Virus genome (UHGV): UHGV-0320751
Direction: 5' to 3' (one strand)
DNA: 25,903 nt
Source: a virus
Shown here piece by piece: positions 10,359-10,685 of the stretch; within the stretch, counting starts at the first letter, position 1, and every line of letters starts with the position of its first letter. A program made the translations under genes and the position numbers. Under the pieces are notes generated by a model. It saw nothing but the letters and a program-made list of their open reading frames with translations, ran no database searches and was not told where the DNA came from.

Positions 10359-10685
10359 ATGAAAAGACGCCTTTTACTACTTTTTCTGTTATCTGTCCTG
10401 GCAGTGGGATGCTCGCAGCAAAAAGCTGATGAGCCCCGGCAATTAGTGACGGTGTATCCACGATATCCGGAATATGCTGCAGCAAATTATATCAAGGGGC
10501 TGGTTGAGGTTAAGTTCGATATTGGTGCTGATGGGACTGTGACACGGATCGTTTTTCTCCGCTCAGAGCCTCATAATTTGTTTCGTGATGAAGTGGTGAA
10601 GGCCATGGCGAAATGGCGATTTGAAAAGAATCGCCCCTGTCAGGGAGTGAAGAGACAATTTATCTTTACGCCGTCACGTCCTTGA
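10359..10685 (+). CDS. small lipoprotein with a TonB C-terminal-like domain (moron)
   Basis: MKRRLLLLFLLSVLAVGC gives a signal peptide and lipobox. YPRYPEYAAANYIKGLVEVKFDIGADGTVTRIVFLRSEPHNLFRDEVVKAMAKWRF fits the TonB_C consensus. AGGA Shine-Dalgarno 8 nt upstream of the ATG. Confidence 0.7.
   Translation: MKRRLLLLFLLSVLAVGCSQQKADEPRQLVTVYPRYPEYAAANYIKGLVEVKFDIGADGTVTRIVFLRSEPHNLFRDEVVKAMAKWRFEKNRPCQGVKRQFIFTPSRP

Follow-up and report, generated by a model that had tools for sequence, protein, structure and literature searches.

The window analysed here, a 25,903-nucleotide stretch of virus genome UHGV-0320751, encodes a 108-aa protein that sequence profiles and a structural model support as a predicted lipoprotein with the C-terminal fold of TonB. 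Its gene, hereafter the TonB_C lipoprotein gene, sits in a phage-21-like prophage between the lysis cassette and cos, and is a lysogenic-conversion gene (moron). Among the possible roles considered, the one that is tentatively favoured is competition with TonB: tethered to the outer membrane, the protein may bind TonB boxes in place of TonB, either those of transporters or those of incoming colicins, and may thereby confer exclusion or tolerance. Its localisation, binding partner, and phenotype are inferred.

The gene is already annotated, and its function is uncharacterised. Identical proteins are found in phage 21 (CPT_21_73, 'TonB C-terminal domain protein'), in RefSeq (WP_000830178.1, 'TonB family protein'), in the LF82 prophage Perceval (a 'TonB fragment' moron), and in ev017 ('partial tonB-like membrane protein encoded within prophage CP-933N'). 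A full-text literature search returned no functional study of the lipoprotein, in agreement with the original prediction, which had called its function unproven. It goes unmentioned in the genome announcement of phage 21, Cor is the sole entry for FhuA in a review of superinfection exclusion from 2024, and a search with the PADLOC defence models produced no match to it.

The gene order in this part of the window is the antiterminator Q, a lambda-type holin S, endolysin R, Rz/Rz1, the minus-strand bor/iss, the TonB_C lipoprotein gene, a 60-aa ORF belonging to PHROG 3744, cos, and the small and large terminase subunits. The neighbouring features are as follows.

9092..9553 (+): Rz i-spanin, end of the lysis cassette (PHROG 13)
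9312-9494 (+): Rz1 o-spanin, embedded in Rz (PHROG 3198)
9585..9878 (-): bor/iss homologue, a divergently transcribed neighbouring moron (PHROG 260 'Bor-like', E=4e-59)
about 11448/11449: cos (alignment to the left end of phage 21)
11637..12185 (+): terminase small subunit (Nu1-like), first gene past cos (PHROG 57)

Window positions 11449-25000 are 99.9% identical to positions 1-13552 of phage 21. Since the linear left end of phage 21 matches from 11449 onwards, cos lies approximately 760 bp downstream of the TonB_C lipoprotein gene. Additionally, positions 9500-11700, a segment that begins at the end of Rz, spans bor and the TonB_C lipoprotein gene, and reaches the start of the gene for the terminase small subunit, are 100% identical to a prophage at icd in Nissle 1917, ATCC 11775, APEC O18, and many others. 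The C-terminus of the J protein of the carrier phage resembles that of long-tailed Stx phages, and is uninformative on TonB dependence.

Among 5426 complete E. coli genomes, 1617 carry the gene, which occurs as two alleles. The phage-21 allele (at least 95% nucleotide identity) accounts for 1225 of the 5426 genomes, and a second allele, about 72-73% identical and typical of O157/Stx phages, for 392; carriers include UTI89, Nissle 1917, LF82, and O157:H7. In IMG/VR, Rz lies upstream of the gene in 53 of 55 phage-21-type loci and in 18 of 19 Stx-type loci, and the downstream module is lambda Nu1/A in one allele and HNH-plus-terminase in the other. The bor gene is located upstream in 34 of the 55 phage-21-type loci and in none of the 19 Stx-type loci. 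Thus, although the proximity to bor that had been noted from the window is real there, the link between the two genes is not obligatory. The constant presence of Rz upstream, the variable presence of bor, and the differing packaging modules together amount to classic moron behaviour. The proposed membership in a class of lambda right-end ORFs was imprecise: the lambda-like phage HK629 has a different gene at this place, and the gene is that of phage 21, with a 100% identical protein.

The open reading frame runs on the plus strand from an ATG at 10359 to a TGA at 10683-10685, and the phage 21 record has a ribosome-binding site annotated at the same place as the Shine-Dalgarno sequence read here.

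10349..10352 (+): Shine-Dalgarno AGGA, 6 nt before the ATG (read from the sequence)
10359..10685 (+): coding sequence of the TonB_C lipoprotein, 108 aa, stop codon included (ORF listing, profile and PDB matches)
10359..10412 (+): predicted signal peptide and lipobox, residues 1-18, MKRRLLLLFLLSVLAVG followed by C (PROSITE-style regular expression)
10434..10667 (+): predicted TonB C-terminal domain; its residues 26-103 correspond to 153-230 of E. coli TonB (TonB alignment, AlphaFold2, Foldseek)

A lipoprotein signal was defined by three elements in the first ~35 residues: an n-region that is basic, an h-region that is hydrophobic, and the pattern [LIVMFWSTAG]2-[LIVMFYSTAGCQ]-[AGS]-C. In the 108-aa protein, MKRRLLLLFLLSVLAVGC matches this PROSITE-type rule at Cys18, and the lipoprotein signal described in the original prediction is indeed present. 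Cys18 is the predicted lipidated first residue of the mature protein. In the wider lipoprotein family described below, the lipobox Cys is kept in all 13 aligned members, and the pattern was found in 20 of 21 members, the exception being 'LNAC', which was missed by the regular expression used. According to the Lol sorting rule, Asp at position +2 keeps a lipoprotein in the inner membrane. The phage lipoprotein has Ser at +2, and sorting to the outer membrane is thus predicted; similarly, 18 of the 20 pattern-matched family members have Ser, Thr, or Ala at this position, and none has Asp. The tether between Cys18 and the equivalent of TonB P153 is 7 residues long in the phage protein and 7-14 residues across the family. 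A tether this short would keep the domain close to where TonB boxes come out, on the periplasmic side of the outer membrane.

The mature part of the protein matches Pfam PF03544 (TonB_C) with 49.2 bits (cut-off 24.6, E=7.3e-13) and TIGR01352 with 47.4 bits (cut-off 27.1), which is far beyond chance, and all of the TonB_C consensus motifs that had been pointed out are found (YPRYPEY, GLVEVKFDIGADGTVTRI, and LFRDEVVKAMAKWRF). The best match among PDB sequences (phmmer) is the C-terminal domain (CTD) of E. coli TonB, 1u07 (E=1.4e-14). This alignment is ungapped, such that residue n of the phage protein corresponds to TonB residue n+127, and identity to TonB 151-230 is 40%. An AlphaFold2 model, built from an alignment of 25 sequences, has a mean pLDDT of 87.7, and of ~97 over residues 31-100. 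Its secondary structure consists of a strand (28-30), a helix (38-42), two strands (47-55 and 61-70), a helix (76-83), and a final strand (94-103), that is, the two helices on a three-stranded sheet of the TonB_C fold, together with the YP motif (Y36-P37, corresponding to TonB Y163-P164). Foldseek matches in the PDB are headed exclusively by TonB CTDs, including 1u07 (target TM-score 0.91), TonB from the BtuB complex (2gsk_B; 0.92, rmsd 1.0 Å), and TonB from the FhuA complex (2grx_C; 0.92, rmsd 0.9 Å). The TonB_C-like fold that had been proposed is therefore borne out both by profile scores above the cut-offs and by the comparison with TonB C-domain structures that had been suggested as a check, in which TM-scores reach 0.91-0.92 and complex-derived TonB superposes at ~1 Å. 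The BFVD viral structure library, searched by fold, contained no significant match to the model.

The residues that are kept relative to TonB include those relevant to TonB function. Seven residues are important for the activity of E. coli TonB, namely Y163, F180, G186, F202, W213, Y215, and F230 (PMC3005593). Their counterparts in the phage protein are Y36, F53, G59, F75, W86, F88, and F103, i.e., six are identical and one is a Tyr-to-Phe change. The positions of Y163, G186, F202, and W213 are invariant in 21 family members, and the others swap just Phe and Tyr, except at the F230 position, which is Phe in 19 of the 21 and Met in two. W213, Y215, and F230 are poorly conserved in TonBs as a whole (22-26%), yet are conserved in enterics, as expected for transporter recognition (PMC3005593). 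Other parts of the surface differ. The TonB box of BtuB touches TonB residues 225-232 and 158-171 (PMC3005593). R166, present in 16 of 16 sampled enteric TonBs, has given way to Tyr in all but two of the 21 lipoproteins or in 19 of them; residues 158-162, which line the TonB box, are not conserved in the lipoprotein family; and the solvent-facing side of beta3 is altered (V226 to Lys or Arg). These three changes indicate that the binding surface has diverged and may serve another partner. Additionally, the 'xINGGxxxE' tail at the C-terminus of enteric TonB is missing, the phage protein stopping 5 residues past its F230 equivalent.

The protein is not itself a TonB energy transducer. It is 108 aa long and has neither an uncleaved transmembrane anchor, in whose place a lipobox stands, nor a proline-rich spacer; lacking these two elements, it cannot transduce energy. 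Similarly, TonB equivalog models in NCBIfam have cut-offs of 265-448 bits, and the phage protein scores at most 69 bits; the highest, 69.2 bits where 315 are required (PRK10819 equivalogs), covers profile positions 156-240 alone.

Labels such as 'TonB fragment' and 'partial tonB-like membrane protein', present in several records, imply that the gene is a non-functional fragment of a captured tonB, and truncated or frameshifted copies do occur (e.g., P0003, P0024, and P0032). However, dN/dS between the phage-21 and Stx-type alleles is 0.10-0.12 with synonymous sites near saturation (pS 0.64), and a ratio of ~0.1 reflects strong purifying selection, which is not expected of a decaying fragment. 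Furthermore, a lipoprotein signal has been acquired and conserved, the same architecture recurs in a family across Enterobacterales, and the predicted domain is intact and confidently folded. With just 40% identity to E. coli TonB, the gene is also not a recent capture. Therefore, the fragment reading is extremely improbable, and as a pseudogene interpretation it is effectively refuted by the selection analysis.

Published RNA-seq of an identical gene, LF82_160, shows that it is transcribed in the lysogen apart from the lytic genes, which is the defining property of a moron. Misson et al. list LF82_160 among the Perceval morons, at 8-fold above the prophage background, with transcript levels of log2 5.0-6.6 in all five conditions, whereas Rz and terminase on either side do not rise above background (PMC9928086). 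The level is modest, about 56 fpkm (PMC9928086). These data also bear on the label 'Rz-like spanin' that is carried by PHROG 1267, which the phage protein matches with E=5e-43. According to this label, the protein would be a lysis accessory or spanin, made late and disrupting the envelope, and the gene is indeed just past the lysis cassette, on the strand of the late transcript. Yet it is transcribed in lysogens while the lysis genes are silent, and a complete Rz/Rz1 pair (PHROGs 13 and 3198) is already present in the window. A folded 80-residue TonB domain is, moreover, unlike a short proline-rich o-spanin. Rz1 itself meets PHROG 1267 via its signal-peptide region alone (residues 5-49, E=1e-4), and the spanin label is thus attributable to clustering spill-over. 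A role in lysis is accordingly scarcely credible, and identity with an Rz1-type o-spanin is effectively refuted by the separate Rz/Rz1 pair and by a mature part that is a TonB_C domain.

The same data separate the gene from its neighbour. In the response to macrophages, the log2 fold change of LF82_160 is 0.26, compared to 7.1 for bor, which is thus induced ~140-fold (PMC9928086). The two genes are therefore under different regulation, although the TonB_C lipoprotein gene may yet be a virulence moron like Bor, the alternative named in the original prediction. The expression data are also relevant to the possibility that the protein is exposed at the surface or released, with the animal host or serum factors as its target, as has been proposed for Bor/Iss; the RefSeq name for the product of the bor homologue is 'increased serum survival lipoprotein Iss'. 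In the window, as in 34 of the 55 phage-21-type loci, iss/bor is the neighbour, which, like the occurrence of the TonB_C lipoprotein gene in pathogenic lineages, would fit such a role. Nevertheless, we consider it quite improbable: none of the 19 Stx-type loci has bor, transcript levels show no response to macrophages, no feature of the protein sequence predicts surface exposure, and the domain of every solved relative is a periplasmic docking module.

The DNA between bor and the TonB_C lipoprotein gene contains the following features.

10056..10260 (no strand): conserved non-coding block between bor and the TonB_C lipoprotein gene (three-way alignment)
10281..10286 (+): candidate -10 hexamer GATAAT of a lysogen promoter (relaxed sigma-70 scan, 8/12)

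In the three-way alignment, invariant columns are denser in the block than at the start of the coding region. The first ~110 nt of the block are the bor promoter region common to lambda-like phages, and in HK629 a minus-strand promoter is annotated inside the counterpart of the block; the remainder travels with the TonB_C lipoprotein gene. The block is present in 432 phage records. On the plus strand upstream of the gene, the promoter scan detected no convincing sigma-70 promoter. GATAAT is the sole relaxed sigma-70 candidate with a good -10 hexamer and is kept in the diverged Stx-type allele, which hints that it could be the -10 element of a promoter active in lysogens. No canonical terminator was detected past the gene, and an Rfam search of the upstream region yielded nothing meaningful at E<=1. 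The best Fur box candidate upstream scored 11/19, equal to the mode of shuffled sequences, and iron regulation was rejected on the basis of this result and of the LF82 transcript levels across the five conditions. An upstream ORF of 45 aa (10204-10341), which the phage 21 record lists as hypothetical, contains stop codons in alleles of 96% and 72% identity, and is therefore not a conserved gene.

An exhaustive profile-free search and a genome scan placed the phage protein in a wider family of proteins of ~105-135 aa, each with a lipobox and a TonB_C domain, at 35-58% identity. The hosts are Klebsiella, Raoultella, Serratia, Erwinia, Pantoea, and Pseudescherichia. One member is encoded in a Klebsiella phage, and one in a Serratia prophage, between Q/Mom and the terminase small subunit; in both, the gene occupies the moron position that it has in the E. 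coli loci. Others are chromosomal. For instance, the S. grimesii homologue lies between dsbB and a gene with a CxxCxxCC domain, which we take to be ycgN-like, and the homologues of Raoultella and Klebsiella lie between lacI and a DUF1440 gene, presumably yagU-like. The family has a signature of its own, consisting of 'SEPxHLFD', 'KWRFExNKP', Tyr at the R166 position, and the absence of the 'NGGxxxE' tail. A neighbour-joining tree of 78 columns splits the lipoproteins from TonB CTDs, with weak bootstrap values of 10% and 37%.

These ordinary chromosomal contexts in Serratia, Klebsiella, and Raoultella suggest a cellular role apart from phage exclusion. It is therefore possible, though doubtful, that the gene is a host-fitness or virulence moron, in which the TonB_C fold serves a different partner and tunes envelope or iron physiology. 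The partner could be peptidoglycan or another periplasmic protein, and the gene could be co-adapted with iss/bor and sitABCD. Besides the non-prophage homologues, such a role is consistent with the family signature, which is unlike that of TonB, with the presence of iss and sitABCD alongside the gene in phage 21, Nissle, and LF82 Perceval, and with low-level expression in all five LF82 conditions, as would fit a housekeeping-type envelope protein. However, the residues that are kept are exactly those for the interaction of TonB with transporters and colicins. In addition, the gene does not follow the regulation of bor in macrophages, its upstream region has no Fur box, and none of the data in this analysis indicate an alternative partner.

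The kept residues, the predicted outer-membrane sorting, the short tether, the transcription of an identical gene in a lysogen, and three precedents favour a competitive mimic of TonB, and thus strengthen indirectly the original prediction of a decoy for TonB-box-dependent uptake, which is plausible. Iron import that depends on TonB is reportedly inhibited when a periplasmic TonB domain is over-produced (Howard 2001, as cited in PMC9841981), a TonB-box pentapeptide lowers both colicin killing and phi80 infection (Tuckman and Osburne 1992, as cited in the same paper), and the phage lipoproteins Llp and Cor act on FhuA from the periplasm. For the phage protein, the 7-residue tether would hold the TonB domain beneath the periplasmic mouths of TonB-dependent transporters. 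There, it would dock by beta-strand addition, as TonB does, on the TonB box of transporters occupied by a ligand or a phage or, alternatively, on that of an incoming group B colicin, and TonB would be denied access to the occupied TonB box. The lysogen would be partly protected from T1- and phi80-type phages, from colicins B, D, Ia, and M, and from some microcins. The price of this mimicry would be some loss of siderophore uptake, an iron cost that TonB-independent SitABCD, encoded on the same prophage in phage 21, Nissle 1917, and LF82, may offset. In its broadest form, in which temperate phages of Enterobacterales use one mimic to cap many transporters or incoming colicins and give receptor-independent protection against whole classes of TonB-dependent phages, colicins, and microcins while in some prophages SitABCD pays for the iron, the proposal is more speculative and must be regarded as rather doubtful.

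The extent of any such block is likely to be limited. Transporters greatly outnumber TonB, which, given the modest expression in LF82, makes a stoichiometric block doubtful. Likewise, the virulence of extraintestinal pathogenic E. coli (ExPEC) depends on TonB systems, and since the gene is common in these strains, a strong general block is unlikely. The second consideration also applies to the possibility of a dominant-negative protein, which would pair with the CTD of host TonB or with periplasmic ExbD, the bound partner then being held at the outer membrane, such that TonB activity falls and the transporters are left untouched by the lipoprotein. TonB CTDs do cross-link in vivo via F202, W213, Y215, F230, and G186 (PMC3005593), all five of which positions are kept in the phage lipoprotein, and the carboxy terminus of TonB forms cross-links with residues of ExbD (PMC11658791). 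However, with the low copy number of TonB, such pairing would cause a strong general TonB defect, at odds with the prevalence of the gene in ExPEC, and TonB dimers in vivo need energised full-length TonB. A dominant-negative action is therefore unlikely.

The prevalence of the gene, its two alleles, the dN/dS estimate, the Enterobacterales family, and the residue conservation are added by this analysis, together with the published transcription of an identical copy in LF82 lysogens. If the competitive mimic model is true, then a broad factor for exclusion or tolerance has gone unrecognised in ~30% of sequenced E. coli genomes, one that works by molecular mimicry of a host energy-transducing protein, and that joins Cor and Llp on the short list of receptor-level superinfection exclusion mechanisms. 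This would bear on host-range prediction in phage therapy, on the efficacy of colicins, microcins, and siderophore-antibiotic conjugates, and on iron acquisition in pathogens. Even a wrong model would leave the gene among the commonest uncharacterised lysogen-expressed morons of E. coli.

In comparison to known systems, the phage protein is closest to the CTD of E. coli TonB (1u07, 1xx3, 2gsk, and 2grx), with TM-scores of 0.91-0.92, rmsd values of 0.9-1.5 Å, 40% identity over 151-230, and retention of the YP motif and the seven important residues. It differs from TonB in its predicted lipid anchoring to the opposite (outer) membrane, in Tyr at R166, and in the lack of the C-terminal tail. Engineered TonB fragments and TonB-box peptides, as presented in the paper that cites them, are soluble, over-produced laboratory constructs, whereas the phage protein is natural, diverged, predicted to be lipid-tethered, and modestly expressed. 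With Bor/Iss, it shares the properties of a small, predicted outer-membrane lipoprotein moron, located in the same genome interval and expressed in the lysogen; the two are on opposite strands and only bor is induced in macrophages, and they fall into separate PHROG groups (1267 versus 260). Fold searches of the PDB and BFVD revealed no homology or fold similarity to Llp or Cor, the PDB giving TonB and TolA domains alone, and the FhuA:Llp entry 8A60 was absent among the Foldseek PDB matches. In proposed logic and location, however, the TonB_C lipoprotein is the same as Llp of T5 and Cor of phi80, N15, and HK022, which are small phage outer-membrane lipoproteins acting on FhuA from the periplasmic side. 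The competitive mimic would thus be a variant of phage lipoproteins that neutralise TonB-dependent transporters from this side. Llp is allosteric on one receptor and competes with TonB for the periplasmic surface of FhuA with no mimicry of TonB; a TonB mimic, unlike Llp, could in principle address many transporters.

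Two small open reading frames flank the gene for the TonB_C lipoprotein (window 10359-10685, plus strand).

Small open reading frames beside the TonB_C gene
10204-10341, plus strand, 45 aa; annotated in phage 21 as hypothetical protein CPT_21_72
10892-11074, plus strand, 60 aa; PHROG 3744, function unknown; RefSeq WP_000881610.1

Stop codons interrupt the 45-aa frame both at the locus with 96% identity and at the one with 72%, so it was rejected as a candidate and is probably not a gene. The 60-aa frame is found downstream of the TonB_C gene in every phage-21-type locus (51 of 51), whereas Stx-type loci lack it; the frame may belong to the same cargo module as the TonB_C gene. 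Within the TonB_C coding sequence itself, a near-consensus sigma-70-like site (10513-10486, minus strand) is directed towards bor; it consists of TTAACC, a 16-nt spacer, and TATAAT with an upstream TG, and matches at 10 of 12 positions, in a region where the total of promoter-like sites does not exceed chance expectation. The mature TonB_C domain has a single extra cysteine, Cys94 (10638-10640, in the context P93-C94-Q95), which is not conserved, since several alleles (L061, P0004, P0010, and P0011) have arginine at this position.

In a three-way alignment, the non-coding block upstream of the gene (10056-10260) has a higher density of columns invariant between the two alleles than does the start of the coding sequence. 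Its first ~110 nt are present in 432 phage records, including those of lambda-like phages, in which a minus-strand (bor) promoter is annotated in the counterpart of this segment. Stx-type loci from which bor has been lost still carry the block upstream of the TonB_C gene. Nested inverted repeats were noted in it by eye (TATTCCCGCA...TGCGGGAATA and CACCGGG...CCCGGTG), and a search of Rfam with the block returned no family match.

PHROG 1267 is in essence the TonB_C lipoprotein family and is labelled 'Rz-like spanin'. The match between this PHROG and the true Rz1 of the window (9312-9494) is confined to the signal peptide and lipobox. The label appears to be an artefact of clustering, one that will spread into phage annotations.

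Beyond the E. coli prophages, proteins that combine a lipobox with a TonB_C domain (35-58% identity) are encoded by single genes in core chromosomal neighbourhoods, either adjoining dsbB or between lacI and a DUF1440 gene.

Lipobox-plus-TonB_C homologues
L092, Serratia grimesii
L087 and L089, Klebsiella/Raoultella
L094, Serratia montpellierensis

A homologue also lies immediately upstream of the terminase small subunit gene in a Serratia prophage, and in Klebsiella phage ST13-OXA48phi12.4 (L003) a DUF1440 gene is near the TonB_C homologue.

The TonB_C lipoprotein of the window recurs unchanged in phage 21, in the icd prophage of Nissle, and in LF82 Perceval, and these prophages carry both sitABCD and iss/bor, a co-occurrence observed in three cases. 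The sitABCD region lies beyond the end of the window.

sitABCD regions
OL657228.1 21967-25416, phage 21
NZ_CP022686.1 4823460-4826909, Nissle 1917

SitABCD is a TonB-independent importer of iron and manganese, and could make up for a decrease in the iron taken up by TonB-dependent routes.

Overall, the window is a mosaic, as seen when 8312-9553 is compared with phage 21 (39866-41036) and the Nissle prophage. At any single place in a complete E. coli genome or phage record, at most ~66% of the window is covered. The head genes, tail genes, and right-end cargo are 99.9-100% identical to phage 21. In contrast, the lysis cassette of the window is lambda-type, with a 107-aa holin and a 158-aa transglycosylase-like endolysin in place of the phage 21 pinholin and SAR-endolysin.
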